Shown here piece by piece: positions 3,197 through 63,809 of a DNA stretch of 64,000 nt (the first letter of the stretch is position 1; each line of letters opens with the position of its first letter). The notes under the pieces are model-generated. The model had not been told where the DNA came from. It was given only the letters and a program-made list of their open reading frames with translations, and searched no databases. Both the position numbers and the translations under genes were made by a program. The stretch lies in assembly GCA_963851265.1 (NCBI GenBank), contig CAWKNZ010000003.1, positions 96,001-160,000 of the forward strand, in the 5' to 3' direction. Source of the stretch: an uncultured Gemmatimonadales bacterium. Lineage in GTDB: Bacteria; Gemmatimonadota; Gemmatimonadetes; Gemmatimonadales; Gemmatimonadaceae.

Positions 3197-5050
3197 ATGC
3201 CCCAGACGCCCTTGCCCTCGCCCACGGCCGCCCCGGCCCCCGATCGGCGCACCTTCATGCGCTACTTCGCCGGCACCAGCCTCGGCGCCACGCTCTTTCC
3301 CGGCGTCCTCTGGGCCAGCGTGGCCGCAGGCGCCGAGCTCACCCCGGCCACCGTAGCCGCCGCGGAGGAGGTCGCGGGCCTGCACTTCGATGCCGCCGAG
3401 CGCGAGATGCTCCTCGACGGACTCAAACGCCAGGAGCAGCAGATCGAAGCCCTGCACGCGCTCCCGCTCGACAACGCCGTCGCCCCGGCCGTCCACTTCG
3501 ACCCGTTGGGCGCGCTCGCCCCGGACACTCGCACCGAGCTGGTCGCGCACCTCGCGGCCGGAGCCAGATCGGCCCCCCGCCCCGCCCCCGCAACCCACGC
3601 GGCGCCCGCCACGGCCGTGCCACGCGATGCGGACCTCGCGTTCCAACCCGTGACGGTGCTGGGAGAGTTGCTCCGCACGCGCCGTATTACGTCGACGCAG
3701 CTCACCCGCGTCTACCTCGACCGCATCCGGCGGTTCGACCCGACGCTCAGGTGCGTCATCACCCTCACCGACGAACGCGCCCTGCAGCACGCGGCGGCCG
3801 CGGACGACGAGATCGCGCGCGGCCACTACCGCGGCCCGCTGCACGGCATTCCGTGGGGCGCCAAGGACCTGCTCGCCGTCCGCGGCTACCCCACCACATG
3901 GGGCGCCGGCCCCTATCGCGACCAGGTCATCGACGCCGACGCGGAGGTCGTACGGCGCCTCGACGCCGCGGGCGCCGTGCTCGTCGCCAAGCTCACACTC
4001 GGGGAACTCGCCCAGGGCGACGTCTGGTTCGGCCGCGGCGCCACCGACGCCGCCGGTGATGAGGCGAAAACCCGCAGCGGCCAGCGCACCCGCAACCCGT
4101 GGAAGCCAGACCAGGGCTCCAGCGGCTCGAGCGCCGGGCCGGCCAGCGCCACGGCGGCCGGCCTCGTCGGCTTCGCGATCGGCAGCGAGACGTTGGGCAG
4201 CATCTCGTCGCCGAGCACGCGGTGCGGCGTCACCGGACTCCGCCCCACCTTCGGCCGCGTCCCCCGAACCGGCGCGATGGCCCTCTCGTGGAGCATGGAC
4301 AAGCTCGGCCCCATCGCGCGCTCCGCGGCCGACTGCGCCCTCGTCCTCGACGCCATCCGCGGCCCCGACGGACGCGACGCGACGTGCGTCGACCTGCCCT
4401 ACACCTGGCGCCCAGACCGTACGTTAGGCGAGATCCGCGTCGGCTACGTGCGGAGTTCGTTCGACGCGCCCGCCGCCGACCCCAGCGACCCCAAGCGCGT
4501 CCTCCACCCCACCAAGGCGTTCGACGACGCGGCGCTCGCCGTCCTCCGCGACCGCCTCGGCGTGCGCCTCATTCCGGTCGAGCTCCCGGACGCGCCGTAC
4601 GACGCGATGCGCCTCATCCTGACCGCCGAGGCGGCGGCCGCGTTCGACGAGCTCACGCGCACGCACCGCGACCGCCTGCTCGTGCAGCAGGGCCGGGGCG
4701 ACTGGCCTAACACGTTCCGGACGGCACGCTTCATCCCGGCGGTCGACTACATCAACGCCAACCGGCACCGCACCCTCGCCGTGCAGCGCTGGGAAGCGCT
4801 GTTCGCCGGGCCCAACGCGGTCGACGTCATCGTCACCCCGACGTTCGCGGCGGGGCTCACCCAACTCGTCGCGACCAACCTCACCGGCCACCCGTCGGTC
4901 ATCGTCCCACACGGCTTCCGCGAGGACGGCACCCCGGTCTCGCTCAGCTTCCTCGGCCGCCTCTACGGCGAAGCCGACATGCTGCGCGTCGCCGCCGCGT
5001 ACCAGACGGCGACGGACTTCCACACGCGACGCCCGCCAACCTTTGCGTGA
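3197..5050 (+). CDS. Amidase signature family enzyme with a putative Tat leader
   Basis: GPLHGIPWGAKD, GSSGSSAG, GSETLGSI catalytic motifs; N-terminal DRRTFM. Confidence 0.9.
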   Translation: MPQTPLPSPTAAPAPDRRTFMRYFAGTSLGATLFPGVLWASVAAGAELTPATVAAAEEVAGLHFDAAEREMLLDGLKRQEQQIEALHALPLDNAVAPAVHFDPLGALAPDTRTELVAHLAAGARSAPRPAPATHAAPATAVPRDADLAFQPVTVLGELLRTRRITSTQLTRVYLDRIRRFDPTLRCVITLTDERALQHAAAADDEIARGHYRGPLHGIPWGAKDLLAVRGYPTTWGAGPYRDQVIDADAEVVRRLDAAGAVLVAKLTLGELAQGDVWFGRGATDAAGDEAKTRSGQRTRNPWKPDQGSSGSSAGPASATAAGLVGFAIGSETLGSISSPSTRCGVTGLRPTFGRVPRTGAMALSWSMDKLGPIARSAADCALVLDAIRGPDGRDATCVDLPYTWRPDRTLGEIRVGYVRSSFDAPAADPSDPKRVLHPTKAFDDAALAVLRDRLGVRLIPVELPDAPYDAMRLILTAEAAAAFDELTRTHRDRLLVQQGRGDWPNTFRTARFIPAVDYINANRHRTLAVQRWEALFAGPNAVDVIVTPTFAAGLTQLVATNLTGHPSVIVPHGFREDGTPVSLSFLGRLYGEADMLRVAAAYQTATDFHTRRPPTFA

Positions 5051-5125
5051 TCGCGCTTGCGCCCGCTCCGCCGCGGGTGCATCGTAGCGCTCCCTGCCCC
5101 GCTCGCCATCCCCCTTCCGCCCGCC

Positions 5126-5449
5126 ATGCGACTCCTCGCCCTACCACTCGCCCTCGCCCTCTACGCCGGCGCCGCGAGCGCACAGACCGCCGCGCGGTCG
5201 GCCAAACCGGCCGTCGCGGCGACGAAAGCCGCCCCCGCCGCCGCGGCCGCCGCGAAGGCCGACCCGATCGACATCAACACGGCGACCAAGGCCGATCTGC
5301 AAGCCATCCCGGGCATCGGCGACGTGTACGCCACCAAGATCATCGCCGGCCGCCCGTACCACAGCAAGGACGAACTGACGCGCAAGAAGGTCCTCCCCGC
5401 CGGCGTGTACGCCAAGGTCAAGGACCGCGTCATCGCCCGGCAGCACTGA
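5126..5449 (+). CDS. ComEA-like helix-hairpin-helix DNA-binding protein, exported
   Basis: Signal peptide, then IDINTATKADLQAIPGIGDVYATKIIAGRPY. Confidence 0.85.
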   Translation: MRLLALPLALALYAGAASAQTAARSAKPAVAATKAAPAAAAAAKADPIDINTATKADLQAIPGIGDVYATKIIAGRPYHSKDELTRKKVLPAGVYAKVKDRVIARQH

Positions 5450-5607
5450 GCGCGACCCGCGCGTCTGCCGGCTCGTGCCGGGGCACGCCGACCCGCGCCT
5501 CATCAGCGCGTCGACGGCCTCGGGCGCGAGCGGCCGCGCGGAGCGATACCTCTCGTTGCAGCTCGTTGCAGCGGCGTGTACCTGGAGCGGCCGGGCCTCG
5601 CCTCCGG

Positions 5608-7008
5608 TCAGCGCCCCAATTCGAACCGCAGCGTGCCATCGACCGTCGGCCGCCGGAACTCGAAGCCGGCCGCGAGAAGTCGCGCCGGCACGACACGCTG
5701 ACTCGCCAGCAGCACCTCATCCGCCTGTTCTCGGCCGAGCGCGAGCCGGAGCGCGAACGCGGGCGCTGGCATCAGGGCCGGCCGGTGCAGCACGTGGCCG
5801 AGCGCGTGCGCGAAATCGGCGTTTCGTATCGGCTCGGGAAGAACCACGTTCACCGGGCCTTCCAGCGCCTCGCGTGCGATCGCTGCGTGAATCGCGCCGA
5901 CCACGTCGTCCAGCCCCACCACGCTCAACCACTGGCGCCCGCTCCCCATCGGCCCGCCCACGCCGAGTTGTGCCGGCAGTAGCAGCTTCGCGAGCGCACC
6001 GCCGGCGGGCGTGAGCACCACGCCGAGTCGCGGGTGCACGACCCGTACGCCGGCTAGGCGTGCCGGCTCGGCCGCATCCTCCCACGCCACGCAGACGTCG
6101 GCGAGGAATCCGCGCCCCGGCCCGGCACCTTCGTCGAGCACCTCGTCCCCACGATCGCCGTAGTAGCCGACCGCGCTCGCCGAGACGAGCACGCGCGGCG
6201 GACGCTCCATCGCGGCAATCGTCCGCGCGATGAGTCCTGTCCCCTGCACCCGGCTGTCCCGGATCGCGCGGCGGTGCTGGGGCGTCCACCGCTCGCCCAC
6301 GTTGGCGCCCGCGAGGTGCACCACCGCGTCCACCCCGTCCAGCGCCCGCGGATCGAGACGACCGGCAGCCGGGTCCCACTGCACGTCGCGCAGTTGGGCA
6401 GAGGGCGGCGACGCTCCACCCGCGCCGCGTCCGATCCGCACCACCGTGTGCCCGCCCGTGGTGAGGAAGTGCGTCAGCGCGTGACCGATGAGTCCCGAGG
6501 CCCCCGTCACGGCGACGGTCATCGGCGGCAGTGCGGCCGCGGCATGGCGTTCGAGGTCGGCGAGGGTCACGGCGTGTCGGTATCCGAAGAGTCGGGTCAA
6601 CTCGGCCCGGGCGACGGCGCCGCCGCCCAGCGCGCCTAACGCACCGAACGGGAGGGCGTAGTCGATCGCGTCGGTGAGCGTGCTCGCCGCCGCGCCCGGC
6701 CCGTCATCGACCCGATGCAGGTGCGACCATCGGGCGAACGGGCCCGCAAGCTGCACGTCACGAAACTGGCGGCCGGCGACGTAGTCCCGGTGTTCGAGCC
6801 GCCACCGCACGCGAACGCCGACCGGCAGTCCCGGCGGCAACCACGTGCGCAGCTCCACGCGCGCCCCGTCCGTGATGCGCCCGTCGCTGCGCACGACCTC
6901 CACGCGCTGCCACGGCGGCGACAGGCGCTCGAACGCGCCAGGACGCGCGTGCCACGCGAACAGCACGTCGCGCGGCACGGGAACGGTGACGGAACGCGAG
7001 AAATGCAC
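5608..7008 (-). CDS. SRPBCC domain fused to TIGR01777/YfcH-type NAD-dependent epimerase
   Basis: FAWHARPGAFERL..GPFARWSHLH (SRPBCC), then VTGASGLIG and SASAVGYYG. Start re-picked at GTG 7008. Confidence 0.88.
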   Translation of the reverse strand: MHFSRSVTVPVPRDVLFAWHARPGAFERLSPPWQRVEVVRSDGRITDGARVELRTWLPPGLPVGVRVRWRLEHRDYVAGRQFRDVQLAGPFARWSHLHRVDDGPGAAASTLTDAIDYALPFGALGALGGGAVARAELTRLFGYRHAVTLADLERHAAAALPPMTVAVTGASGLIGHALTHFLTTGGHTVVRIGRGAGGASPPSAQLRDVQWDPAAGRLDPRALDGVDAVVHLAGANVGERWTPQHRRAIRDSRVQGTGLIARTIAAMERPPRVLVSASAVGYYGDRGDEVLDEGAGPGRGFLADVCVAWEDAAEPARLAGVRVVHPRLGVVLTPAGGALAKLLLPAQLGVGGPMGSGRQWLSVVGLDDVVGAIHAAIAREALEGPVNVVLPEPIRNADFAHALGHVLHRPALMPAPAFALRLALGREQADEVLLASQRVVPARLLAAGFEFRRPTVDGTLRFELGR

Positions 7009-8228: not shown

Positions 8229-9350
8229 TCAGATCGCGGCCAACTTCCCCGCCGGGGCCGGCAACATCCGCCGCATCACGACCTCGGCGACGTGCCCCAG
8301 ATCGACGATCTCCACCGCCGCCCCGAGCCGCGCCGCTTCGCGCGGCATCCCGTACACCACGCAACTCGCCTCGTCCTGCGCCACCGTGTGCGCGCCCGCC
8401 TCCCGCATCGCGAGTAGCCCCTTCGCGCCGTCCGCACCCATGCCGGTGAGCAGCACACCCACCGCGTTGCGGCCGACGTGGCGAGCCGTGCTCTGGAACA
8501 GCACGTCGACCGCGGGCCGCTGGTGATGCACGGGCGGGCCGTCCTTGACCCGCGCCACGTACCGCGCTCGGCTACCGGCCCCCGCCGGCTGGACGACCAT
8601 GTGCTGGTTCCCGGGCGCGATCAGCGCGACACCGGGTACGACCGCATCGCCGTCCCGCGCCTCGCGCACCTGCATCGCGCAGAGCCCGTCGAGTCGCGCC
8701 GCGAAGGCGGCCGTGAAGTGCTCGGGCATGTGCTGGACGATGACCGTGCCGGGCGCGTTCGCGGGAAGCGCGCGCAGCAGCCGCTCGATCGCCTGCGTCC
8801 CCCCGGTCGACGCTCCGACGGCGAGCACCGCGTGCGCCGCGTCGAGCGGCGTCGGGTCGACAACCGAGCCGCGCGGAACCGGCCCGGCAGGTGCGACGCG
8901 CGCCGGCGCGCGCCGGACGCGCGCACCCGCGGCCGCGTGCACGGCGCGCGCGACGTCGGTCGCGACCCCGCGCGCCACGAATGCCGACGCCGGCTTGGCG
9001 ATCACCTCCACGGCGCCTAACGCAAGCGCGTGGACCGCCGTCGCGCTGTCGCGCGGCGTGAGCGAACTCACCACCACGACCGGCAGCGGGTGGTGCCGCA
9101 TCAGCTGTGCGAGAAAGCTCAGCCCGTCCATCCGTGGCATCTCGACGTCGAGCGTCAGGACGTCGGGACGCAGCCGCGCGATCTGCTCGCGCGCGTCGTA
9201 CGGGTCCGCCGCGGTTCCCACCACGACCAACTCGGGGTGTCGCGCCAGCTCGTCGCACAGGATCCGCCGGACGAGCGCGGAGTCGTCGACCACCAGCACG
9301 CGGACGCGACGCTCCGGCGCGAGGGGACGGGCAGCAGTAGCGTGAGTCAT
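8229..9350 (-). CDS. cheB: Chemotaxis response regulator methylesterase CheB
   Basis: REC domain, then GASTGG, QHMP and LTGMGADG. Confidence 0.96.
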   Translation of the reverse strand: MTHATAARPLAPERRVRVLVVDDSALVRRILCDELARHPELVVVGTAADPYDAREQIARLRPDVLTLDVEMPRMDGLSFLAQLMRHHPLPVVVVSSLTPRDSATAVHALALGAVEVIAKPASAFVARGVATDVARAVHAAAGARVRRAPARVAPAGPVPRGSVVDPTPLDAAHAVLAVGASTGGTQAIERLLRALPANAPGTVIVQHMPEHFTAAFAARLDGLCAMQVREARDGDAVVPGVALIAPGNQHMVVQPAGAGSRARYVARVKDGPPVHHQRPAVDVLFQSTARHVGRNAVGVLLTGMGADGAKGLLAMREAGAHTVAQDEASCVVYGMPREAARLGAAVEIVDLGHVAEVVMRRMLPAPAGKLAAI

Positions 9351-11651: not shown

Positions 11652-13883
11652 TCACGCGGCGTGGCGGGCGCCCCGCAGAGGGCCGGATTCGTCCAGCGCT
11701 TCGCCGCGTTCGGCGAGCGCAACCACCTCGGCTACGTCCAGGATGAGTCCCACGCGCCCGTCGCCGAGAATCGCACCGCCCGCGACGCCCGCGACCCGAC
11801 CGACGCCGCTGCCTAACGACTTGGCGACGACCTGCTGTTGACTCAACAGCTCGTCGACGAGGAGCGCGGACCGTCGCTGCCGCCCGTCGCCGACGATGAC
11901 GAGCAGGGCGCGTGCGGGGTCGAGTTCGGCGCCGTCGATCTGGAACAGGCGGTGCAGGCGGACGACCGGAAGCACCTCGCCACGGAGCGTGACCACCTCT
12001 CCCCGTCCGCCAATCGTCCGGATCGCGTCGGGCGACGGGCGGAAACTCATGTGGATGTTCGTGGTCGGGACGACGTAGCGCTCGGTACCGACACGCACGA
12101 GCATGCCGTCCGTCACCGCGAGCGTGAGCGGCAGGCGTACGGTGAACGTGCTGCCCATCCCGGCCCGGGAGGTGATCTCGACGCGACCGCGCGCGCGCTC
12201 GACGTTCCGGCGCACGACGTCCATCCCGACGCCGCGGCCCGAAAGGTCGGTCACCTGGTCGACCGTCGAGAACCCGGGCGCGAAGATGAGCTGGTACACG
12301 TCCGCGTCGCTCATCCCGTGCTCGCTCGCGATGATCCCCTTCTCGATCGCCTTGCGGACGATGCGCTCGCGGTTGAGCCCGCGCCCGTCGTCGACCAGTT
12401 CGACGACGACGCTCCCGCCCGAGTGGAACGCGGAAAGCCGGACCGTGCCGTGACGCGGCTTGCCGGCCGCGACGCGCTCGTCGGCCGGTTCGATGCCGTG
12501 GTCGATCGCGTTGCGCACCATGTGCACGAGCGGGTCGCCGATCACGCCGACGAGGGCGCGGTCGATCTCCGTGTCGTCTCCCTCGGTGACGAACTCGACC
12601 TCCTTGCTGACCTTCGCCGACACGTCGCGCACGAGCCGCGTCATCTTCTGGAACGTCGCCTTGAGCGGCACCATGCGCATGCCCATCGACAGCTCCTGCA
12701 ACTCGCGCACGATCTTGCCAGCGTGTCCGAGCTTCTTGGTCAGGGTCGCGAGTGCCTGGTGCGTCTCTCCGGTCTCGGCGAGGGCGTCGTCGCCGGCGAT
12801 CATCGCCTGCGCGATCACGAGCTCGCCGACGAGGTCGACCAGTCGGTCGAGGCGGTCGGTGCGGACGCGGAGGAACTGATCCGCGTCGCCAGCGCCCGAC
12901 GCCTGCCGACGATCGGCACCCTGCCGCCGGTCCTCCTGTCGGCGCTCCTCGTGACGCCGCTCCTCGGAGCGGCGCTCGGTACCGGTCTGCGTGGCCGCGT
13001 CGGCAGTCGCCGCGGGTGGCGGCGCCGGGACGTCCGCACGTACCGTGGCGACGGCGGGCGCGTCGACCGGCGCCGCCGTGGGGTCGTACGCCGCGAGGGC
13101 TCCGGCGAGGGTCGCGTACTCGCCGGGCACGAAGATCGTGCCGCCCGGGCCGTGCGCTCGCAGCGTGTCGTCGATCGCGTCGAGCAGCGCCTTGAGCATG
13201 TCGACGGAGCGGAGCGCGAGTTCGGCGCACGCCGTGGTGTATGCGATCTCTCCGGCACGCACGCGGGCGAGCAGCGACTCCGCCTCGTGCGCGAAAGCGC
13301 TCATCCGGACGAGGCCGAGGAACGCGCTCGTGCCCTTGATCGTGTGAAACGCCCGGAACACGGTATTGATCGCCTCGCCGTCGTCGGGCGCATGCTCGAG
13401 AGCGAGGAGGGCGGCCTCGCTCCCCCCGAGGCAGTCGCGGCTCTCGGCGAGGAAGTCCGCGAGCAGGTCGAGGTCGACGTCGGTGGGCAGCACCTCGGGC
13501 GCGGCCGCGGCGCTCGCCGGCTCGGCGGTCGCCGGCTCGGCGGGGCGCGCTTCAACCGTCGGCGTGATCGTCACAGGCGCCACCGATGGCGCGGTCGCGG
13601 CGGGCGCCGGGGCGGCGACTCCGGACGCCGGCGCCCCGGCCATCACCTGCTCCAGCAGCGCTCCGACCTCCGCCAGCACTGCGGCGGGGTCCGGGGCCTT
13701 TCCTTCGACGAGTGGCTTCAAGGTGCGCACCGCGCGCGCCAGAAGTGGTTGTACGCTAATCGCGACCTTGTTTCCGAACGCCAGATCGGCGAGTTGGTCG
13801 CGCACGCGCCCAAGGTCGTCGCGATCCTCCGGTTCGAGTTGGAGGAAGTACGTTGCGACGTCGTCGAGGGTAGGCTCGGGCAT
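11652..13883 (-). CDS. cheA: Chemotaxis histidine kinase CheA
   Basis: P1 FRAFHTIKG, dimer domain, HMVRNAIDHGIE, SGRGVGMDVV, C-terminal CheW domain. Confidence 0.96.
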   Translation of the reverse strand: MPEPTLDDVATYFLQLEPEDRDDLGRVRDQLADLAFGNKVAISVQPLLARAVRTLKPLVEGKAPDPAAVLAEVGALLEQVMAGAPASGVAAPAPAATAPSVAPVTITPTVEARPAEPATAEPASAAAAPEVLPTDVDLDLLADFLAESRDCLGGSEAALLALEHAPDDGEAINTVFRAFHTIKGTSAFLGLVRMSAFAHEAESLLARVRAGEIAYTTACAELALRSVDMLKALLDAIDDTLRAHGPGGTIFVPGEYATLAGALAAYDPTAAPVDAPAVATVRADVPAPPPAATADAATQTGTERRSEERRHEERRQEDRRQGADRRQASGAGDADQFLRVRTDRLDRLVDLVGELVIAQAMIAGDDALAETGETHQALATLTKKLGHAGKIVRELQELSMGMRMVPLKATFQKMTRLVRDVSAKVSKEVEFVTEGDDTEIDRALVGVIGDPLVHMVRNAIDHGIEPADERVAAGKPRHGTVRLSAFHSGGSVVVELVDDGRGLNRERIVRKAIEKGIIASEHGMSDADVYQLIFAPGFSTVDQVTDLSGRGVGMDVVRRNVERARGRVEITSRAGMGSTFTVRLPLTLAVTDGMLVRVGTERYVVPTTNIHMSFRPSPDAIRTIGGRGEVVTLRGEVLPVVRLHRLFQIDGAELDPARALLVIVGDGRQRRSALLVDELLSQQQVVAKSLGSGVGRVAGVAGGAILGDGRVGLILDVAEVVALAERGEALDESGPLRGARHAA

Positions 13884-44109: not shown

Positions 44110-46332
<2,223 letters not shown>

Positions 46333-46771: not shown

Positions 46772-46893
46772 CACTTCCCGCGCGGCCCGCCGCGCGCGTC
46801 CGGCCGCCCGCCGGGCCGGTCATCCGTCGCGCGCCCAGACGCCCACGCGGGGCGCCCGCGCGCGACGCCACACCCTCCGCCTCACCCCGCCCG

Positions 46894-50347: not shown

Positions 50348-50746
50348 ATGAACCCCGCAGAGATCGACGCGCTCGTCGCGAGCGTGCAGGCCGCGAAGGC
50401 CAGCGGCCAGCCGGTCGCCCCACCGGCCCCGCCCCCCCCGGCCAGCTACGACCCGGACTTCGGCACCACGCCAGCGTCCGGCGGCAGCGAGATCCCGTTA
50501 GGCATGATCTTCGACCTCTCGCTGCCCGTCTCGATCGAGCTCGGGCGGACGTCGATGACCGTGCAGGAAATCCTGCGTCTCGGGCGCGGGTCGGTGATTC
50601 AGCTCGACCGCCTCGCGGGCGAGCCGATCGACATCTACGTCGGCGAGCGCAAGTTCGCCGAGGGCGAAGTGGTGGTGCTCGGCGAGCACTTCGGCGTGCG
50701 GATCGTGCGGATCTTCGCCGGGGCGACGTCGGCGCTCGCGGCGTGA
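50348..50746 (+). CDS. fliN: Flagellar motor switch protein FliN
   Basis: IELGRT..GSVIQLDRLAGEP..GEVVV..FGVRI. Confidence 0.93.
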   Translation: MNPAEIDALVASVQAAKASGQPVAPPAPPPPASYDPDFGTTPASGGSEIPLGMIFDLSLPVSIELGRTSMTVQEILRLGRGSVIQLDRLAGEPIDIYVGERKFAEGEVVVLGEHFGVRIVRIFAGATSALAA

Positions 50747-54327: not shown

Positions 54328-55110
54328 GTGCCCGTGGACCTGTATGCGCCCGGCGTTCCGCAGGCGCTCGTGCTGCTCGCCGTGCGCCTGACGGGGTTGC
54401 TGCTCGTCGCGCCGGTGTTCTCGGCGCGCACGGTGCCGGTCCGCCTGCGCACCGCGTTCCTACTCGTTCTCACGCTCCTGCTCGCGCCGGCGGCGGTGGC
54501 CGCGCTCGGCCGGCGCGCGGCTGCCGTCACGGTCACGCCCGAAGCGTTCGCGGCCGAGTTGCTCGTCGGCGTCGCGCTCGGCTTCGGCGCGGCGGTCCTT
54601 ATCGGCGCGGTCGAGACGGCGGGCGACCTGATGTCGACCACCGTCGGACTTTCGGGTGCGGCGCTGCTCGACCCGATGACGGGCGCGTCGTCGCCTGTGC
54701 TCGCGCAGTTCTCGCAGCTGTTCGCGGTGACCGTGCTCCTCGCGCTCGACGGGCACCTCGTGATGCTCGACGCCGTGGCCGAGAGCGTGCGCGCGCTGCC
54801 CGTGGGCGGGCCGGTCGACCTGCGGGCCGGGCTCGCGGCGCTCGTCGCGTCGGGTTCGTCGCTCTTCCTGTTAGGCCTGCGCTTCGCCGCCCCGGCGATC
54901 GCGGCGTCGATGATCGGCAACACCGCGCTGGCCGTGCTCACGCGCGTCGCGCCGTCGATCAACGTGCTCACGGTGGCGTTCCCGCTGCAGGCCGCGCTGG
55001 GGCTGACGGCGGTGACCGCCGCCTTCGCGATGACGGCGACGTGGTTCGTCGGCTGGAGCGGGCACTACGGCGACGCGCTCGCCCGCGTCTTCGCCGCGTT
55101 GGCGCCGTGA
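54328..55110 (+). CDS. fliR: Flagellar export protein FliR
   Basis: APVFS..VPVR, AGDLM, DP, DGHL, RVAPSIN. Confidence 0.9.
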   Translation: MPVDLYAPGVPQALVLLAVRLTGLLLVAPVFSARTVPVRLRTAFLLVLTLLLAPAAVAALGRRAAAVTVTPEAFAAELLVGVALGFGAAVLIGAVETAGDLMSTTVGLSGAALLDPMTGASSPVLAQFSQLFAVTVLLALDGHLVMLDAVAESVRALPVGGPVDLRAGLAALVASGSSLFLLGLRFAAPAIAASMIGNTALAVLTRVAPSINVLTVAFPLQAALGLTAVTAAFAMTATWFVGWSGHYGDALARVFAALAP

Positions 55111-55121: not shown

Positions 55122-56213
55122 ATGGCCGAGACCGAACAGGAGAAGACCGAAGCCCCGAGCCAGCGGCGGCGCGACGACGCGGCGGACGAGGGGCGCGTCC
55201 CGCGCAGCCCCGAGGTGAACGCGGCCGCCCTGCTGCTCGCCTCGGCGCTCGCGTTCTCGGTGGCCGGGCCCGCGCTCGCGCAGTCGTTGCGCGACATCGT
55301 CGGCACGGGGCTCGGCTTTGGTGCCGCCGGTCAGCTCACGTCTGCGGGTGCGATCGAGCTGATCCGCGCGCTCGGGTGGAAGGCGATGGCGGGGAGCGCC
55401 GGGTTCCTTGCCGCGCTCTCGCTCACCGCGCTCGTCGTCGGCGCGGCGCAGGCCCGCGGCACCTTCACGCTGCAGCCGCTCGCCCCAAAATTCTCGCGGC
55501 TCAACCCGGCCGAGAACGCGAAGCGCGTGGTCGGCACGCAGGGGTTCGTCGAGCTCGGCAAGTCGCTCGTCAAGCTCGTCGTCGTCGGCTGGGCCGTGCG
55601 CGGCGTGCTCGAGGCCGCGTGGCCGGACGTGGTCGCGTTAGGCCAGGAGTCGCCGCGCGCGCTGCTCGAGGTGGCGCGCACGCACGGCATCAAGCTGTTC
55701 GTGCACGCGGGCACGGCCTACCTCGCGCTCGCCGGGGCGGACTACGGCTGGCAGCTCTGGCAGTTCGAGCAGTCGCTGCGGATGACGAAGGAGGAGGTCA
55801 AGCAGGAGTCGCGGCAGCAGGACGGCGATCCGATGGTGAAGCAGCGCATGCGCGCGCTCGCCCGGCAGCGCGCGCGGCGGCAGATGATGAAGGACGTGCC
55901 GAAGGCGGACGTCGTCGTCGTCAACCCGGTGCACATCGCCGTCGCGCTCCGCTACGACCCCGACGTCGCCCCGGCGCCGTACGTGGTCGCGCTCGGGCGC
56001 CGCAAGGTGGCCGAGCGGATCAAGGAGATCGCGTTCGCCTCGGGCGTGCCCGTGGTCGAGAACATCCCGCTCGCCCGCGCGCTGATCGCCGGCGTGCAGT
56101 TGGGCAGCATCATCCCCGCCGAACTCTACGTGGCGGTCGCCGAGGTGCTCGCGTTCGTCCTGCGCCGCCGCGGCGGCGCGCCGCAGCAGCCCACGGTCGA
56201 CGCGTCCGCGTGA
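55122..56213 (+). CDS. flhB: Flagellar export protein FlhB
   Basis: EKTEAPS, MTKEEVKQE..DGDP, NPVH cleavage loop, VAEVLAFV. Confidence 0.95.
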   Translation: MAETEQEKTEAPSQRRRDDAADEGRVPRSPEVNAAALLLASALAFSVAGPALAQSLRDIVGTGLGFGAAGQLTSAGAIELIRALGWKAMAGSAGFLAALSLTALVVGAAQARGTFTLQPLAPKFSRLNPAENAKRVVGTQGFVELGKSLVKLVVVGWAVRGVLEAAWPDVVALGQESPRALLEVARTHGIKLFVHAGTAYLALAGADYGWQLWQFEQSLRMTKEEVKQESRQQDGDPMVKQRMRALARQRARRQMMKDVPKADVVVVNPVHIAVALRYDPDVAPAPYVVALGRRKVAERIKEIAFASGVPVVENIPLARALIAGVQLGSIIPAELYVAVAEVLAFVLRRRGGAPQQPTVDASA

Positions 56214-56253: not shown

Positions 56254-58341
56254 ATGAGTACCGCCGTCCTGCCCGCCGCCGAATCGGCCGGGAAGCGCCG
56301 CGCCGAGGCGGGCATGGCCTTCGCCGTGCTGCTCGTCGTGTCGCTGCTCGTGCTGCCGCTCCCCGGGGTGCTGCTCGACCTCGCGCTCGCGCTCTCGATC
56401 GGGCTGTCGCTCGTCGTGCTGCTCGTCGCGCTCTACACGCACGACCCGCTCGAGTTCAGCTCGTTCCCGGCGCTGCTGCTCGTGATGACGCTGTTCCGCC
56501 TCGCGCTCAACATCTCGAGCACGCGGTTGATCCTCAGCAAGGGCGAGGCGGGCAAGGTCATCCAGGCGTTCGGGCAGTTCATCATCGGCGGCAACTACGC
56601 CGTCGGCCTGGTCATCTTCCTCATCCTCATCGGCATCAACTTCGTCGTCATCACCAAGGGCGCGGGGCGCGTCGCCGAGGTGGCCGCGCGCTTCACGCTC
56701 GACGCGATGCCCGGCAAGCAGATGGCCATCGACGCCGACCTCGGCGCGGGGCTGATCGACGAGAAGGAGGCGCGCCGACGCCGCTCCGAGATCTCGCGCC
56801 TCGCCGACTTCCACGGCGCGATGGACGGTTCGTCCAAGTTCGTCAAGGGCGACGCGATCGCCGCGCTGCTGATCACCGGCGTCAACATCATCGGCGGCAT
56901 CTTCATCGGGGTCGTGCAGCGCGGCATGCCGATCGGCAAGGCGGCGGCGACGTACACCATCCTCACCGTCGGCGACGGGCTCGTGTCGCAGGTGCCGGCG
57001 CTCATCACGAGCACGGCCGCCGGCCTCATGGTCACCGCCGCCGGCCAGGAGGAGCGCATCGGGTCGGTGATCAGCGGGCAGCTCGGGGCCCACCCCCGCG
57101 CGATGTACCTCGCGGCCGGCGTGCTCGGCGCGTTCGCGATCGCGCCCGGCCTGCCCGCGGTCCCCTTCCTCGCCCTCGCCGGCGGGATGGGCGCGTTAGG
57201 CCGCGTCGCCGACACGGCGCAGAAGCGCCAGCGCGCCGTGGTCCAGCGCGCCGCCGAGACGCCCGTCGAGGCGCCCCCGCCGCCGCCCGACCCGATGAAG
57301 GACCTGCTCCAGCTCGACCCGATCGAGCTCGAGGTCGGCTACGCGCTCATCCCGCTCGTCGACGAGAAGCAGGGCGGCGACCTCCTCGAGCGCATCTCGC
57401 TCCTGCGCAAGCAGAGCGCGCTCGAACTCGGCATCCTCATCCCGCCCATCCGCATCCGCGACGACATCCGCCTGCCGAGCAACGAGTACCTCGTCAAGCT
57501 GCGCGGCTCGGAGTGCGCGCGCGCCGAGGTGCTGCCGCGCTTCCTCATGGCGCTCGACACCGGCGGCGTGGTGCAGCAGGTCGACGGCATGGACACGATC
57601 GACCCGAGCTTCGGGATGCCCGCCAAGTGGATTCCGGCATCACGCCGCCAGGACGCCGAGGCGAACGGCTACGTCGTCGTCGAGCCGACCACGGTCGTCG
57701 CCACGCACCTCATCGAGGTGCTCAAGGGGAACGCCGCCGAACTGCTCGGCCGCCAGGACGTGCAGGAGATGGTCGAGACGCTCAAGAAGTCGCACCCCGC
57801 GCTCGTCGACGAGGTGGTGCCCAACAAGATCTCGCTCGGCACGCTCCACCGCGTGCTGCAGCGGCTGCTGCGCGAACGCATCCCCATCCGCGACCTCGTC
57901 ACGATCCTCGAGGCGCTGGGCGACGCGGCCGACACGACCAAGGACCCGGAGCACCTCACGGAGCACGCGCGCCGCGCGCTCGCCAACGTGATCGCGCGCC
58001 TGTTCGCCGACCCGACCGGGGCGGTACGCGGCGTGACGTTAGGCCCGAAGCTCGAGCAGGCGCTCGCGGCGCTGTTCTCGCCCCGTGCCGGGCAGCAGCA
58101 GCAGGCCATGGCGCTGCTCACGCCGGACGGGCTCGCGGGCATGCTGCGCGACCTCAACGCGCAGGCCGTCGCGGGCTCGGTCGACGGGCGGCCGCTGCCG
58201 CTCATCGTCCCGCCGTCGTTGCGCGTGGGCGTGCGCCGGCTGGTCGAGCCGGTGCTTCCCGCGCTGCCGGTCGTCTCGCTCGCCGAGCTGCCGGCGCACG
58301 TGACGCTCCAGAGCGAGGGCGTGTGGGAGATGAGCGGATAG
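56254..58341 (+). CDS. flhA: Flagellar export protein FlhA
   Basis: RVAEVAARFTLDAMPGKQMAIDAD, GAMDGSSKFVKGDA, GDGLVSQ. Confidence 0.97.
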   Translation: MSTAVLPAAESAGKRRAEAGMAFAVLLVVSLLVLPLPGVLLDLALALSIGLSLVVLLVALYTHDPLEFSSFPALLLVMTLFRLALNISSTRLILSKGEAGKVIQAFGQFIIGGNYAVGLVIFLILIGINFVVITKGAGRVAEVAARFTLDAMPGKQMAIDADLGAGLIDEKEARRRRSEISRLADFHGAMDGSSKFVKGDAIAALLITGVNIIGGIFIGVVQRGMPIGKAAATYTILTVGDGLVSQVPALITSTAAGLMVTAAGQEERIGSVISGQLGAHPRAMYLAAGVLGAFAIAPGLPAVPFLALAGGMGALGRVADTAQKRQRAVVQRAAETPVEAPPPPPDPMKDLLQLDPIELEVGYALIPLVDEKQGGDLLERISLLRKQSALELGILIPPIRIRDDIRLPSNEYLVKLRGSECARAEVLPRFLMALDTGGVVQQVDGMDTIDPSFGMPAKWIPASRRQDAEANGYVVVEPTTVVATHLIEVLKGNAAELLGRQDVQEMVETLKKSHPALVDEVVPNKISLGTLHRVLQRLLRERIPIRDLVTILEALGDAADTTKDPEHLTEHARRALANVIARLFADPTGAVRGVTLGPKLEQALAALFSPRAGQQQQAMALLTPDGLAGMLRDLNAQAVAGSVDGRPLPLIVPPSLRVGVRRLVEPVLPALPVVSLAELPAHVTLQSEGVWEMSG

Positions 58342-59716: not shown

Positions 59717-60073
59717 CGCACGGGCGTGCTCGCGCGCGACGCGCGTTCCGTTCGCGCGGCCGCCGCGTGCGCGAGGACGACGCGGGACCGGGCCCGCGCG
59801 CTGCCCTAGGCGCCGCGCGGCACCTCGCCTAACGCTTCGGCGGTCGCGCCGTCGTCGCGCCCGCGGTTCGGCGCGACCGCGAGGGCACGGCGGCGACGCA
59901 CGCCCTCACCGACGCCGCGGCCCGCGTGCGGCGCCGCGCGGGGAGGCTCGGCACCACCGCCGATTTTGCGCGGCCGCCCGTCGGTCGTCCTGTGACCGAT
60001 CTCACTGTGGCACCTCGCCACCGTCGCGCGCGCGCCGTAGCCGCGCCGCGACATCGCCCCCCGCCCGCCCGCC

Positions 60074-60970
60074 GTGAGCTACCCGTCTCTTGCCCAACGC
60101 GCCGCGACGCCCGCCCGTTCGGGCGGTGCGGCCGCCGTGCGCGGGGTGGACGGTCCGCTGCCGCAGATCCTCGTCGCCGCGAGCGGCGCGACGCGCTGCG
60201 GCACCACGCTCGCGAGCGCCCTGGTGGCGGTCACCGCGTCCGCGCTCGGCCGCAACGTGCTGCTCGTCGACGCGACGCAGTCCGGGGGGATGCTGCCGCT
60301 GCTCGGCGCGCCAGCGTCTCCGCCGTTCGCCGCGGTGAGCCCCACACTCACCGCGGCCGCGGCCGACGTCGCGGCGCTCGTGCCGCTGTTCGAAGCGGGG
60401 CCGGTGTCGACCGGCGACGCCGTGCTCGTCGACGCCGGCGCGCGACTCGGCAACGTGTTGGGCGCGCTCGCCGCGGCCCTCGCGGCCGGGGTCACGCCCG
60501 GGCTCCTGGTCGTGACCGGAACCGAGGCCGCGCAGCTCGCTGCCGCGTACGCGCTCATCAAGATCGCCGCCGAGCGCGGCCTGAGTGCCGCCACCGAGGT
60601 GGTGATCGTCGGTGGAGACGAGGCGGAAGCGCGCGACGCGTTCGCGCTCCTCACCGCCGGCGTCCGCCGCTTCCTCGACCGTCCCCTCGCGCTCGCCGCG
60701 CACGTCCCCGAAGACCCGTCGCTCGCCGTCGCGCTCTCGGCGGGCATGTCCGTCCACGACGCCGCCGCGGGCTCGCCCGCGGCGGCCGCCCTCACCGACC
60801 TCGCGGGGCGGTGGGCGGCGTCCGCGCCGGCGCCGGCCGCGGGCGCGCCTAACGAATCCGCGCGCGCGGCGCGCACCTCCCGCCCGCAGCCCGCCGCGTC
60901 CCCGCCCCGCCGGCCCGCCGTTCCCGGCCTCTCCGGCCCCCTCGCCTTCGCCGCCGCACCCGCGCGATGA
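60074..60970 (+). CDS. Degenerate FlhG/FleN (MinD-like) protein
   Basis: MinD-like layout (P-loop remnant SGATRCGTT, VLLVDA, VLVDAG, AYALIK, VPED); overlaps the fliA start. Confidence 0.65.
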   Translation: MSYPSLAQRAATPARSGGAAAVRGVDGPLPQILVAASGATRCGTTLASALVAVTASALGRNVLLVDATQSGGMLPLLGAPASPPFAAVSPTLTAAAADVAALVPLFEAGPVSTGDAVLVDAGARLGNVLGALAAALAAGVTPGLLVVTGTEAAQLAAAYALIKIAAERGLSAATEVVIVGGDEAEARDAFALLTAGVRRFLDRPLALAAHVPEDPSLAVALSAGMSVHDAAAGSPAAAALTDLAGRWAASAPAPAAGAPNESARAARTSRPQPAASPPRRPAVPGLSGPLAFAAAPAR

Positions 60971-61797: not shown

Positions 61798-61812
61798 ACG
61801 CGCCGCGTCATG

Positions 61813-61874
61813 GCGCACGACGACGCGCGGGGCGCGGCGGGTCGACCCGCCGCGCCCCGCGCGTCGTCGTGCGC
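61813..61874. repeat. Perfect 62-bp palindrome downstream of fliA
   Basis: 31-bp arms with no spacer, centred on GTC|GAC at 61843/61844. Confidence 0.85.
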
Positions 61875-61958
61875 GCTTGACGGGGAGCCGCGCCGCGGGC
61901 AAGCTGCGGGGCCGCGGGCCGTCGCCCGCGCCTTCCGCCGACGCAGCCCGCACCACCC

Positions 61959-63809
61959 ATGCCCCGCCCGATCTCGTTCGTCGTCCTCGCCGCGGTCTCG
62001 CTGTTCGCGGCCGCGCCCGCCCGCGCGCAGGGCGCCCCGACCGCCACGTCGGCGGCGCCCGCGGCGCGCCGCGTGACCCGCGGGGGCGGGCTGCCCCGGG
62101 CCTTCGCCGGCGCCGACGCGCCGCAACGCGCCTGGTGGAAGGAGGCGGTCGTCTATCAGATCTACCCGCGCTCGTTCCAGGACACGAACGGCGACGGCGT
62201 CGGCGACCTCCGGGGGATCATCCGGCACCTCGACTACGTCAAGTCGCTCGGCGTCGACGTCGTCTGGCTCAACCCGATCTACGGATCGCCTAACGACGAC
62301 AACGGCTACGACATCAGCGACTACCGCGCCATCATGGCGCAGATGGGTACGATGGCCGACTTCGACGCCATGCTCAAGGGCATGCACGCGCGCGGCATCA
62401 AGCTCGTCATGGACCTGGTCGTCAATCACTCGAGCGACGAGCACCGCTGGTTCGAGGCGTCGCGGCGGAGCCGCACGAATCCGTACCGCGACTACTACCA
62501 TTGGTGGCCGGCCGAGAAGGGCACGCCGCCCAAGCGCGCCAGCTTCTTCGACGTGAACGGCGACGCGTGGCGCTACGACTCGACGACCAACGCGTACTAC
62601 CTCCACTACTTCAGCCGCAAGCAGCCCGACCTGAAGTGGGAGAACCCGAAAGTCCGGCGGGAAGTCTACGACCTCATGAAGTTCTGGTTCGACAAGGGCG
62701 TCGACGGCTTCCGCATGGACGTGATCCCGTTCATCTCCAAGGACACCACGTACCCGCCGATGCCGGCCGAGTACGGCGGCGACTGGGGCCGCTTCTACGC
62801 CAGCGGCCCGCACCTGCACGAGTACCTGCACGAGATGAACCGGCAGGTGCTGAGCAAGTACGACGTGATGACCGTGGGCGAGGGCGCCGGCGTGCAGATT
62901 GGCGACGCGCTCAAGTTCGTCGACCCGGCGCGGCAGGAGCTGCAGACGTTCTACCACTTCGACGTGCAGGGGTGGGGTCGCAACGCCAAGGACGGCGCGT
63001 ACCCCGACAGCGGCAACCGCCGCCTCCCCGACCTCAAGGCGATCTTCACGCGTTGGGACTCGGTCTTCGCCGACCGCGGGTGGGGCACGGTGTACTGGGG
63101 CACGCACGACCAGGCCCGCGCCGTGAGCCGCTTCGGCAACGACGCGCCGGCGTACCGCGTGCCGTCGGCCGAGATGCTCCACACGCTGCTGCTCACCATG
63201 CGCGCGACGCCGTACATCTACAACGGCGACGAGATCGGGATGACCAACCCGCGCCTCGCGCGCATCGAAGACTACCGCGACATCGAGACGCGCAACCGGT
63301 ACACGCGGATGCAGCGCGAGGGCGTGGGCCCGGACTCGCTGCGCGCGTTCGTCCGCGGGCAGGCCGAAGTCGCGCGCGAGAACGGCCGCACGCCGATGCA
63401 GTGGACCGCCGGGCCCAACGCGGGGTTCACGACCGGCACGCCGTGGCTCGGCGTCAATTCGAACCATGACGCCATCAACGTCGCGGCCGCGGAGCGCGAC
63501 ACGGGGTCGGTGCTGCACTACTTCCGGCGCATGGTCGCGCTGCGCAAGTCCGAGCCGGCGCTCGTCTACGGTCGTTACCAGCTGCTGGACCGCGACAACC
63601 CCGACGTCTTCACGTACACGCGGACCCTGAACGGGCGCACGCTCCTCGTGGCGCTCAGCTTCAGCACGGGGGGCGGTCGGACGGCGATCCCGGCCGGTTA
63701 CGCCGTCGGGCGCACCCTCATCAACAACCTCGCGAGCGCGCCGGTGCAGGGCGGCGCGCTGGTCCTGCAGCCGTACCAGGCGGTCGTGATGGAGCTGCAG
63801 AAGCGCTGA
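61959..63809 (+). CDS. GH13 alpha-glucosidase/oligo-1,6-glucosidase with a signal peptide
   Basis: WWKEAVVYQIYPRSF, DLVVNH, QPDL, DGFRMDV, GE, HD. Confidence 0.93.
   Translation: MPRPISFVVLAAVSLFAAAPARAQGAPTATSAAPAARRVTRGGGLPRAFAGADAPQRAWWKEAVVYQIYPRSFQDTNGDGVGDLRGIIRHLDYVKSLGVDVVWLNPIYGSPNDDNGYDISDYRAIMAQMGTMADFDAMLKGMHARGIKLVMDLVVNHSSDEHRWFEASRRSRTNPYRDYYHWWPAEKGTPPKRASFFDVNGDAWRYDSTTNAYYLHYFSRKQPDLKWENPKVRREVYDLMKFWFDKGVDGFRMDVIPFISKDTTYPPMPAEYGGDWGRFYASGPHLHEYLHEMNRQVLSKYDVMTVGEGAGVQIGDALKFVDPARQELQTFYHFDVQGWGRNAKDGAYPDSGNRRLPDLKAIFTRWDSVFADRGWGTVYWGTHDQARAVSRFGNDAPAYRVPSAEMLHTLLLTMRATPYIYNGDEIGMTNPRLARIEDYRDIETRNRYTRMQREGVGPDSLRAFVRGQAEVARENGRTPMQWTAGPNAGFTTGTPWLGVNSNHDAINVAAAERDTGSVLHYFRRMVALRKSEPALVYGRYQLLDRDNPDVFTYTRTLNGRTLLVALSFSTGGGRTAIPAGYAVGRTLINNLASAPVQGGALVLQPYQAVVMELQKR

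Follow-up and report, generated by a model that had tools for sequence, protein, structure and literature searches.

Occurrence of GTTAGGC in the window and in the genome

The window, a 64-kb stretch from the genome of a soil bacterium (G000), contains genes whose Pfam matches agree with the names CheB, CheA, FliG, FliI, FlgE, FlhB and FlhA given by a sequence-only reading, and in addition genes for flagellin, a FliK-like protein, FlgD, FliN and FliR. GTTAGGC occurs 22 times within it, 11 times on each strand (Table 1). A recount reproduced all positions and strands of that reading, as well as the extension of 19 of the 22 copies to CGTTAGGC. Dinucleotide-preserving shuffles (n = 100) contained 1.92 copies on average and at most five, and 22 were reached in 0/100; the mean for CGTTAGGC was 1.05 (maximum 4). 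When synonymous codons were permuted within each window gene (30 rounds), 0.93 +/- 0.93 copies were obtained (maximum 3), compared with 19 observed, and the proposed enrichment thus persists under a codon-preserving null. According to the gene calls of this analysis, 12 copies are read as sense-strand xxG-TTA-GGC, three as xxG-CCT-AAC and four as xGC-CTA-ACx, one (59827) is intergenic, and two supply a TAA stop (25129, sigma-54 activator; 46766, FlgD), as had been claimed.

Table 1. Copies of GTTAGGC in the window, with gene context and retention in two relatives
Position	Strand	Form	Context	Retention
4423..4429	+	CGTTAGGC	amidase gene 3197-5050(+), sense xxG-TTA-GGC	retained in G001, absent from G004
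4705..4711	-	GTTAGGC	amidase gene 3197-5050(+), gene strand xxG-CCT-AAC	
6634..6640	-	CGTTAGGC	epimerase/DUF1731 gene 5608-6978(-), sense TTA-GGC	
9015..9021	-	CGTTAGGC	cheB 8229-9299(-), sense TTA-GGC	
11811..11817	-	CGTTAGGC	cheA 11652-13883(-), sense TTA-GGC	
22604..22610	+	CGTTAGGC	flagellin gene 22588-23541(-), antisense, gene strand xGC-CTA-ACx	retained in G001
25129..25135	-	CGTTAGGC	sigma-54 activator gene 23686-25134(+), gene strand GCC-TAA-C, stop	
28056..28062	+	CGTTAGGC	rhodopsin-like gene 27374-28201(-), antisense CTA frame	
39747..39753	+	CGTTAGGC	fliG 39538-40560(+), sense TTA-GGC	retained in G001
42124..42130	+	CGTTAGGC	fliI 41459-42844(+), sense TTA-GGC	retained in G001 and G004
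43497..43503	+	CGTTAGGC	ORF 43399-44109(+), without Pfam match, sense TTA-GGC	
46004..46010	-	CGTTAGGC	fliK-like gene 44809-46332(+), antisense CTA frame	
46766..46772	-	GTTAGGC	flgD 46406-46771(+), gene strand GCC-TAA-C, stop	
47711..47717	-	CGTTAGGC	flgE 46894-48459(+), antisense CTA frame	
50497..50503	+	CGTTAGGC	fliN 50348-50746(+), sense TTA-GGC	retained in G001 and G004
54870..54876	+	TGTTAGGC	fliR 54328-55110(+), sense TTA-GGC	
55637..55643	+	CGTTAGGC	flhB 55122-56213(+), sense TTA-GGC	retained in G001 and G004
57195..57201	+	CGTTAGGC	flhA 56254-58341(+), sense TTA-GGC	retained in G004, T preceding
58038..58044	+	CGTTAGGC	flhA 56254-58341(+), sense TTA-GGC	retained in G001 and G004
59827..59833	-	CGTTAGGC	intergenic, genes 58421-59716(+) / 60137-60970(+)	
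60847..60853	-	CGTTAGGC	ORF 60137-60970(+), without Pfam match, gene strand xxG-CCT-AAC	
62288..62294	-	CGTTAGGC	alpha-amylase gene 61959-63809(+), gene strand xxG-CCT-AAC	

The density in the window is ordinary for the genome (1,762 copies in 4.60 Mb, or 24.5 per 64 kb), and about 1,800 copies per genome are present in G000 and its close relatives. The genome-wide k-mer comparison suggested by the sequence-only reading placed GTTAGGC as the most over-represented 7-mer under order-1 and order-3 Markov models, with 160 and 127 copies expected, respectively. CGTTAGGC was observed 1,396 times against 58 expected, and synonymous permutation of all genes yielded 71.8 +/- 9.2 copies compared with 1,293 observed, an 18-fold excess. 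The over-representation noticed in the window is confirmed as real. Both edges of the word are sharp: C follows 1,762 of 1,848 GTTAGG, G precedes 1,762 of 1,794 TTAGGC, and flank conservation ends one base out on either side. One-mismatch variants show no excess, with the sole exception of GTTGGGC at 2.5-fold (1,393 vs about 600 expected). Close spacings are scarce (133 gaps below 400 bp vs 250 expected), and the copies are more evenly distributed than random at short range. No paper on GTTAGGC as an abundant genome word was found in the literature searched.

Codons, orientation and distribution among relatives

Use of the word imposes the rarest codons, namely TTA, CCT and CTA. TTA accounts for 0.99% of Leu codons, and 993 of the 1,311 TTA codons in the 3,823 called genes fall within the word, which bears out the earlier remark on rare codons. 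Relative to codon usage, the four stop-free frames are enriched 29-, 25-, 12- and 8-fold. Among the 1,762 copies 1,293 are located in ORFs, whereas 274 are intergenic, where 25-35 were expected. This enrichment of 8- to 29-fold in all four stop-free frames and of 8- to 11-fold between genes supports the earlier view that the word acts at the DNA level: GTTAGGC is a DNA-level signal rather than a consequence of protein sequence or codon usage. The density peaks at stop codons and 0-75 nt downstream of them. In total 213 genes terminate in the word; GCC-TAA-C ends 131 of the 880 Ala-ending genes, and xGT-TAG-GC ends 82 of the 1,227 genes with Gly, Ser, Cys or Arg as last residue.

The strand symmetry seen in the window holds genome-wide (885 copies on +, 877 on -) but not inside genes, where 1,017 copies are sense and 276 antisense. 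This excess is largely due to coding opportunity, the word being used at 9.1% of x-Leu-Gly and 13.6% of x-Pro-Asn sites. Symmetry is found again in fully intergenic copies between same-direction genes (78 co-oriented, 80 anti-oriented), and genes that follow the local majority direction use the word about as much as genes opposed to it. There is no polarity of GTTAGGC outside coding constraint.

Among 121 Gemmatimonadaceae genomes, 23 contain the word at least 5-fold above a reversed-word control and 15 show intermediate levels (2- to 5-fold). In three word-poor relatives it occurs at chance level, and no other abundant word was found in three word-poor relatives examined for one. The six word-rich family members placed in an RpoB tree form one clade (support 85/73). 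The extended form is YGTTAGGC, mostly CGTTAGGC, in the genus of the window and CGTTAGGY in G012, and the density in the genus is below that of G012. Congeners share 42-48% of sites and differ at more than half. Among the window sites aligned in both G001 and G004, seven of 15 are private to G000, each of which requires two losses or one gain on the RpoB tree. The pattern of shared and private sites in the three species is explained about equally well by turnover and by pure decay of an older set that was denser. Compared with neighboring same-phase 7-mers, 11 of 26 sites were retained where 7.2 were expected, and 14 of 29 where 10.1 were expected; this somewhat better retention holds despite the disfavored codons. 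A 45-kb block around the parS sites and parAB is free of the word in G000; G001 and G004 each have two copies there per about 36 kb. The block is conserved within the genus, but five other word-rich genera (G012, G052, G120, G061 and G060) lack a parS-proximal desert, which therefore does not accompany the word in general. GTTAGGC marks part of the Gemmatimonadaceae and is best explained as a clade-restricted, double-strand DNA-level word with a putative reader.

Possible functions of the word

GTTAGGC is written into ordinary genes against their codon habits and resembles the tags by which Neisseria and Haemophilus recognize their own DNA. Our leading explanation, tentative and at somewhat below an even chance, is that it may serve as a self tag resembling an uptake sequence and be maintained by a putative clade-specific reader. 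A protein may read the word, and this reader may act in DNA uptake. As in the mechanism known for the uptake sequences of Pasteurellaceae and Neisseriaceae, such a clade-specific protein of a DNA-uptake or recombination path would prefer word-bearing DNA, so that alleles gaining the word by mutation would enter and recombine into other cells at a higher rate. Positions tolerated by the protein code would then accumulate copies, with a ceiling set by selection on proteins and codons. The drive may still be active in the genus of the window.

The comparison with the uptake sequences of Pasteurellaceae (USS) and Neisseriaceae (DUS) draws on the accessible parts of the cited reports. USS and DUS likewise comprise thousands of exact, short, asymmetric words in both orientations, genic and intergenic, with 34.5-65% in ORFs (PMC2817400). 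They favor one orientation in reading frames and are biased toward gene ends (PMC2346458), as in the peak of GTTAGGC at stops, and their dialects track phylogeny (PMC3630211), as do the forms in G012 and the genus of the window. However, they occupy frames that use preferred codons (PMC2817400), whereas GTTAGGC forces the rarest, so that the uptake reading would call for direct selection or a far stronger drive. Occasional inverted pairs forming hairpins between convergent genes are common to USS, DUS and GTTAGGC. USS and DUS measure 9-12 bases, the present word 7-8. To our knowledge, both known families have a dialect in every member, unlike the Gemmatimonadaceae, in which the three word-poor relatives examined lack their own. 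USS and DUS are uptake systems, whereas for GTTAGGC uptake is a candidate function. G000 harbors nine prepilin-type signals and ComEC; the latter is present in 31/31 genomes, word-poor ones included, and is thus not discriminating. Unlike in DUS systems, the ComP_DUS receptor family had no match in G000, G003, G004 or G012, and weak matches were scattered over word-rich and word-poor genomes alike; a ComP-type receptor as reader is not supported. The literature searched contains no record of natural transformation in this phylum. The word-free 45-kb block also counts against uptake, since a uniform drive does not predict it.

Possible, though rather unlikely, is that GTTAGGC represents the sites of an abundant chromosomal protein, nucleoid-associated or of a monomer-binding tyrosine-recombinase family, with selection for a site every few kilobases. 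The short, asymmetric word with its sharp boundaries, its identity with a known recombinase half-site and the depletion of short spacings agree with this, and the block at parS/parAB could mean that the bound protein is not tolerated there. Yet no candidate protein was found, the desert is confined as described above, congeners differ at most sites, and the benefit per site is hard to see for about 1,800 weak sites maintained against codon bias.

It is doubtful that integron machinery reads the word and that its chromosomal spread reflects IntI and cassette biology, for instance as landing sites or raw material for cassettes. GTTAGGC has the same letters as the recombination core of attC (R' box) and attI (R box): it fits R' GTTRRRY, and its complement fits R'' RYYYAAC, the consensus given in the accessible part of PMC12901181. 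In the word-poor genomes G021 and G019, cassette arrays hold many or most copies; R'' and R' boxes are paired there at distances of 83-129 nt, flank single-gene cassettes and fold as attC-type hairpins (z -4.0 to -6.2). G000 has its own array with identical CGTTAGGC boxes, GCC-TAA-C ends many genes, and integrases above the model cut-off are common in the order (18/31 genomes). However, the array region of G000 holds only 35 of 1,762 copies. About 98% are solitary, in ordinary genes or elsewhere, without partner box, hairpin or cassette, and only nine inverse/core pairs 40-160 nt apart occur genome-wide. IntI does not follow the word (above the cut-off in 5/10 word-rich and 13/21 word-poor genomes); that of G000 is split, and those of G001 and G012 are fragmentary. 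Copies downstream of stops show no preference for the orientation in which a captured cassette could be read, and insertion would be harmful at the copies within genes.

Slightly more doubtful still is a decaying relic of past drive or selection, with each species of the genus losing copies at sites of its own. The lower density than in G012, the limited sharing among congeners with private and three-way shares that fit independent loss, the excess of the one-step decay product GTTGGGC, the intermediate levels in 15 family genomes and a 45-kb block that gained nothing in three species would fit such decay. Against it stand the slightly better retention of sites in disfavored codons, the private window sites and an excess of still 14- to 24-fold.

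Enrichment by a DNA methyltransferase or by mismatch-repair bias, for which cyanobacterial HIP1 and the words of very-short-patch repair in E. coli serve as models, appears quite improbable. HIP1 is a highly iterated palindrome, lineage-specific, more than tenfold enriched in several gene frames and of unknown function, and we know of no other word enriched inside genes to such a degree as these two. GTTAGGC shares with HIP1 the restriction to a lineage, the exact octamer-scale form and a more than tenfold enrichment in several frames, and its sharp edges would suit an enzyme recognition site, but unlike HIP1 it is not palindromic. The search covered the families PF02384, PF01555, PF00145 and PF02086, none of which is common to the word-rich genomes: word-rich G001 (97% complete) matches none, and word-rich G061 matches PF02086 alone, as does its word-poor congener G114. 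The modification target, one of several candidate functions among which the sequence-only reading made no choice, has lost support accordingly. Vsr repair is not supported either, as Vsr occurs in 3/31 genomes, all word-poor. A REP/MITE origin was tested and is not supported.

A Chi-like or KOPS-like polar signal for a translocase (RecBCD, AddAB, FtsK) is very improbable and, within the reach of the tests used, already largely refuted: Chi and KOPS/AIMS octamers are also over-represented short words read on DNA, length and excess are of a fitting kind and sense orientation predominates within genes, but those octamers are polar, whereas GTTAGGC lacks polarity between genes, is used equally with and against the majority direction and shows a far larger excess, and RecBCD/AddAB is not common to word-rich genomes, with RecC in only 1/31 genomes and AddAB-type nuclease domains in 12/31 and in none of the word-rich G001, G004, G012 and G018. 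The 11:11 balance that had been taken to argue against Chi and KOPS is insufficient alone, because orientation follows gene direction; the rejection itself is supported by the intergenic counts, the usage in genes, RecC and AddAB.

Abundance and genic context of GTTAGGC

All 22 copies of GTTAGGC that the sequence-only reading had counted in the window, 11 per strand, were recovered at their positions, and 19 of them read CGTTAGGC, as had been stated. Dinucleotide-preserving shuffles of the window contained on average 1.92 copies of the 7-mer and 1.05 of the 8-mer, and none of 100 shuffles came near the observed counts. In the source genome (G000; 4.60 Mb in 12 contigs, 73% G+C) the word occurs 1,762 times, 885 times on the plus and 877 times on the minus strand. 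It ranks first among all 7-mers, against 160 copies expected from an order-1 and 127 from an order-3 Markov model, and CGTTAGGC is the top 8-mer with 1,396 copies against 58 expected. The excess did not vanish, as the sequence-only reading had allowed that it might, under a codon-preserving null: genome-wide, 1,293 copies lie in genes, compared with 71.8 ± 9.2 after synonymous permutation within genes. In maximum-order Markov models the excess is masked because the sub-words are enriched too. The list from these models is headed by words containing AGCGCT or one of its one-base variants (AGGCGCT, AAGCGCT, AGCGGCT and others), which are 2–2.7-fold enriched in the source genome and may reflect either codon pairing or another signal weaker than GTTAGGC.

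The borders of the word are sharp. A cytosine follows GTTAGG in 1,762 of 1,848 cases, and a guanine precedes TTAGGC in 1,762 of 1,794. The preceding base is C in 79% and T in 14% of the copies, the following base G in 54%, A in 22%, C in 19% and T in 5%; further out than one base per side, codon periodicity alone is seen. One-mismatch variants do not exceed expectation, GTTGGGC (1,393 copies, 2.5-fold) being the exception. A longer repeat containing the word was rejected, as the information content equals the background one base outside the 7-mer. A REP/MITE-type family was not supported, since no longer unit was found in any of the four context classes and 73% of the copies lie inside genes. 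An artefact of composition or codon usage is refuted by the shuffles, the Markov models, the codon permutation, the per-frame usage and the intergenic excess. GTTAGGC is a real, very strong and lineage-restricted word at the level of DNA.

Genes were called with a simple codon-likelihood ORF picker, which yielded 3,823 genes covering 89.6% of the source genome; their starts are approximate, their frames and stops firm. The word had been proposed to lie in several reading frames, and enrichment was indeed found in all four stop-free frames, with observed/expected ratios of 8–29. The usage of synonymous opportunities per frame indicates that the sense bias within genes mostly reflects which dipeptides are common. 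The use of rare codons was also borne out: 993 of the 1,311 TTA codons of the genome sit within GTTAGGC, and one tRNA-Leu(UAA) gene is present. This is an extreme case of a codon bias being overridden by a DNA word. A protein-level motif was rejected on the basis of the four frames, the stop codons and the intergenic copies, and a frameshift-type heptamer GTT-AGG-C because codon periodicity is continuous across the word and this frame is the least used.

Copies of GTTAGGC in the source genome by reading frame and context
Context	Copies	Synonymous opportunities used	Observed/expected
Sense, xxG-TTA-GGC	993	9.1%	29
Antisense, xxG-CCT-AAC	201	13.6%	12
Antisense, xGC-CTA-ACx	75	3.9%	8
Sense, GTT-AGG-Cxx	24	0.7%	25
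Overlapping gene end	195		
Intergenic	274		

In 213 of the 3,818 genes for which a stop was called, or roughly one in eighteen, the stop codon lies inside the word. GCC-TAA-C terminates 131 of 880 genes ending in alanine, and xGT-TAG-GC terminates 82 of 1,227 genes. The density is maximal, in either orientation, at the stop and in the following 75 nt. With intergenic and gene-end copies pooled, it amounts to 2.1 per kb in convergent gaps, 1.0 in same-direction gaps and 0.55 in divergent gaps, and to 0.31 in coding DNA. The fully intergenic copies, which lie in 483 kb of 73.2% G+C, compare with 25–35 expected. Overall, the number of copies per gene is Poisson-distributed when scaled by gene length, with short genes below expectation. 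Gene finders applied to these genomes, and studies of their codon usage, should expect the word. Between two convergent genes on contig C2, two copies are arranged as a perfect 13-bp inverted repeat around a 6-base spacer. The resulting hairpin is terminator-like and resembles those formed by paired uptake sequences in Neisseria; core sites of tyrosine recombinases have this layout as well.

Distribution in relatives and a word-free block

Among 31 genomes of the order, the word is very abundant in the four congeners and in G012, a member of another genus. G012 harbors 6,360 copies of CGTTAGGC in 5.1 Mb at 61–62% G+C. Four genomes (G018, G008, G017 and G030) are moderately rich, and the remaining ones hold 3–200 copies. 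G012 has its core shifted to CGTTAGGY (310 copies of CGTTAGG and 255 of GTTAGGC in 204 kb), whereas the genus of the source genome reads YGTTAGGC. An RpoB tree was built from 25 of the 31 genomes, leaving out G002, G008, G013 and G014 (no match) as well as G005 and G017 (partial genes). In this tree G012, G018, the source genome and its congeners G001, G003 and G004 form one clade (support 85/73), the sister of which is the word-poor G009, and G030 lies apart. A survey of the family, in which the word and a reversed-word control were tallied by hand, comprised 121 genomes of 68 genera, each at least 80% complete. The word reached at least five times the control in 23 genomes (14 genera), two to five times in 15 and less than twice in 83. 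One genus (g53) is discordant, with 3,896 copies in G061 versus 66 in G114, a difference of about sixtyfold. The unpublished genomes G011, G047 and G093 are among the 83 word-poor ones, and G011 is also part of the RpoB tree and the 31-genome tallies; no conclusion depends on these three alone.

In the word-poor G006, G015 and G029, no alternative abundant word was seen in 120–140 kb of each. Their 28, 50 and 11 copies of GTTAGGC equal the order-2 to order-3 Markov expectation, and active avoidance was therefore rejected. The samples checked for a dialect of the word in G009 (33 kb) and G014 (16 kb) are too small for a judgement. As a strong watermark of its lineage, the word may serve to check metagenome bins and to spot recently imported DNA. 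FlhA encoded in the window is 69% identical to FlhA of metagenome bins titled Gemmatimonadaceae and Gemmatimonadota. The window also carries a gene of the bacteriorhodopsin family (Pfam E 1e-44) amid flagellar, chemotaxis and regulator genes.

The longest gap between copies in the source genome extends over 45 kb, for which about 17 copies are expected and none is present. Its genes include gidA, parA, parB and mnmE, the others being ordinary; another gap on this contig contains dnaA. When G001 and G004 are aligned to this block (about 36 kb each, 77–78% identity), 2 copies are found in each, compared with about 20 on average. The word is not generally excluded from the ParB/parS zone, as five other word-rich genera show normal density near parB. 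A recent import of the block from a sampled word-poor lineage found no support either: full-length GidA is 58–68% identical to that of all non-congeners, with no outlier, and partial matches to G009 reach up to 75%. Next to parA, the block contains the G+C-rich 16-bp palindrome TGTGGCACGTGCCACA twice exactly and once as a near-copy, and there is no other exact copy in the genome. It is also found near parB in the congeners G001 and G004; in G012 a canonical parS adjoins parB. Located where parS is expected, TGTGGCACGTGCCACA is probably a genus-specific variant of parS.

Coordinates of the window and of features in the source genome and its relatives
Feature	Genome	Contig	Positions	Locus
Window	G000	C3	96001-160000	
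Bacteriorhodopsin-family gene	G000	C3	window 27374-28201 (-)	
Longest gap without the word	G000	C1	182,876-227,962	L081-L083
TGTGGCACGTGCCACA, exact copy	G000	C1	192709-192724	
TGTGGCACGTGCCACA, exact copy	G000	C1	195715-195730	
TGTGGCACGTGCCACA near parB	G001	C5	732446, 735453	
TGTGGCACGTGCCACA near parB	G004	C1	1524698, 1527620	
Inverted repeat of two copies	G000	C2	11205-11236	
Cassette array, 48 copies	G021	C95	1-20000	L084
Cassette array, 16 copies	G019	C3	1-9000	L085
Chromosomal integron	G000	C10; C6	~186000-215025; 1-6050	L112, L113
Cassette array of this integron	G000	C10; C6	~186 kb to contig end; 1-2,300	
529-aa ORF in insert of integrase gene			L113:3540-5129 (-)	L113
Two copies flanking tRNA-like gene	G012	C43	85822-85926	

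Uptake sequences and protein sites as possible explanations

Judged by its pattern, an uptake-sequence-like drive is the best-supported mechanism for GTTAGGC, although its probability stays somewhat short of even. Like the uptake sequences USS and DUS, the word is present in exact copies far above chance (1,762 versus 127–160) and about equally in both orientations, without replication polarity. Intergenic copies between same-direction genes are co-oriented in 78 and anti-oriented in 80 cases. GC skew on the contigs of the source genome was too noisy for a usable replication map. As the assembly of 12 contigs has no mapped origin or terminus, the local majority of gene direction was taken as a proxy of replication polarity. 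Where this direction is strongly biased locally, 8.5% of Leu-Gly sites are used in majority-direction genes and 6.9% in others; for Pro-Asn sites in the same regions the values are 9.3% versus 4.2% (1/24).

The uptake apparatus itself was also analyzed. ComEC was found in all 31 genomes, rich and poor alike, and thus does not discriminate; nine prepilin signals are present in the source genome. For the receptor domain ComP_DUS (PF16732), no match was found in G000, G003, G004 or the likewise word-rich G012. It exceeded the cut-off in one of the 31 genomes, a word-poor one, and thus does not track the word. Outside subscription journals, no paper was found that describes GTTAGGC as a genome-wide word, the matches being an integron paper and a paper with a primer, and none that reports an uptake sequence in a Gemmatimonad or in Gemmatirosa. 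Of 1,915 papers matching competence terms, 12 were listed, and a Gemmatimonad term appears in one of these, a single time. To our knowledge, there are only two bacterial families whose hyper-abundant self-type DNA words have a known reader. If true, an uptake sequence here would be a third, unrelated case from an abundant, little-studied soil phylum, and the phenomenon would be general.

Alternatively, the copies could constitute an array of sites for a DNA-binding protein, which we regard as unlikely. Regarding the spacing of the copies, gaps below 400 bp are depleted (133 versus 250 expected) and gaps of at least 12.8 kb are somewhat frequent (21 versus 12.6 expected).

A possible integron link and the less probable explanations

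The consensus of integron attC sites is GTTRRRY for the core (R') and RYYYAAC for the inverse core (R'') (PMC12901181). GTTAGGC fits the former exactly and GCCTAAC the latter. In the word-poor genomes G021 and G019, matches are clustered on few contigs at steps of about 500–600 bp and form GCCTAAC/GTTAGGC pairs 83–129 nt apart, with single small ORFs lying between one pair and the next. Nearly all copies in the two arrays are paired attC boxes, integrase genes or fragments are located on other contigs, and a search of the dense G021 stretch revealed no tandem repeats. The bottom strands of the pairs fold as hairpins (z -4.0 to -6.2) in which the boxes pair at the base, followed by a short unpaired spacer and then by a long stem that is interrupted by single bulged bases and has a variable tip. 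attC sites are built in this way.

A chromosomal integron is also present in the source genome. Its array, with attC hairpins of at least two types, contains six attC sites of two types identified by pattern, and further paired boxes, with folds of z -4.1 and -6.2. The adjoining integron integrase gene is split by an insert of about 1.9 kb carrying an ORF without Pfam match. Only 35 of the 1,762 copies lie in the array region and the rest are solitary; nine inverse-core/core pairs occur genome-wide. The imperfect paired hairpin of about 60–130 nt with bulged bases bounding a cassette, which defines attC, was found in the array only, whereas the solitary copies lack flank conservation. Large cassette arrays were also rejected as the reason why G030, G017 and G008 are moderately enriched, since no paired boxes were found in these genomes. 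An integron integrase exceeded the model cut-off in 18 of the 31 genomes, namely in 5 of 10 word-rich and 13 of 21 word-poor ones, so that the integrase was rejected as reader for lack of co-distribution with the word. That GTTAGGC is read via the integron machinery appears quite improbable.

By our own estimate, which is not a computed value, a random top 7-mer would coincide with a well-known site in about one of a hundred cases. Therefore the integron link is treated as a serious lead and not as a finding. It is rather improbable, in our judgement, that the identity of the word with the integron core is no coincidence and that the uptake or recombination machinery of the clade would read the cassette-bounding word. 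In that case, preference for self-DNA and harvest of environmental cassettes would be one act, word-rich incoming single strands would be a substrate for cassette recruitment by the integron integrase in transformation, and the genome-wide spread of GTTAGGC would be a by-product of such an uptake bias. Cassette recruitment by the integron integrase during natural transformation has been shown for Vibrio cholerae (PMC12614218). The coincidence points to a concrete connection of DNA uptake with the capture of cassettes.

The copies in the genus of the source genome could also be the decaying relic of an ancestral drive, which we consider decidedly doubtful. DNA identity among congeners is 72–89% over aligned blocks. 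Of the aligned window copies, 7 of 15 are retained in G001 and 5 of 16 in G004, with 4 retained in both. Across two regions, 11 of 26 and 14 of 29 copies are retained, where same-phase 7-mers within 300 nt predict 7.2 and 10.1. Many differences between congeners at word sites are two-step synonymous changes (TTA versus CTC or CTG).

A target of methylation or repair is very unlikely. Very-short-patch repair is not supported, as Vsr occurs in 3 of the 31 genomes, all of them word-poor. The methylase reading is weakened by four methylase families, none of which had a match in the word-rich G001. The word also differs from HIP1, which is a palindrome, whereas GTTAGGC is not its own reverse complement, and a cognate methyltransferase common to the carriers was not found among the four families searched in G001. 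A polar signal of the Chi/KOPS type is extremely unlikely, as neither intergenic counts nor the gene-direction proxy revealed an orientation bias; RecC was detected in 1 of 31 genomes and AddAB-type domains in 12 of 31, and PDDEXK_1 pairs were not found in the word-rich G001, G004, G012 and G018. In G012, two copies of GTTAGGC flank a tRNA-like gene, recognized by eye only.
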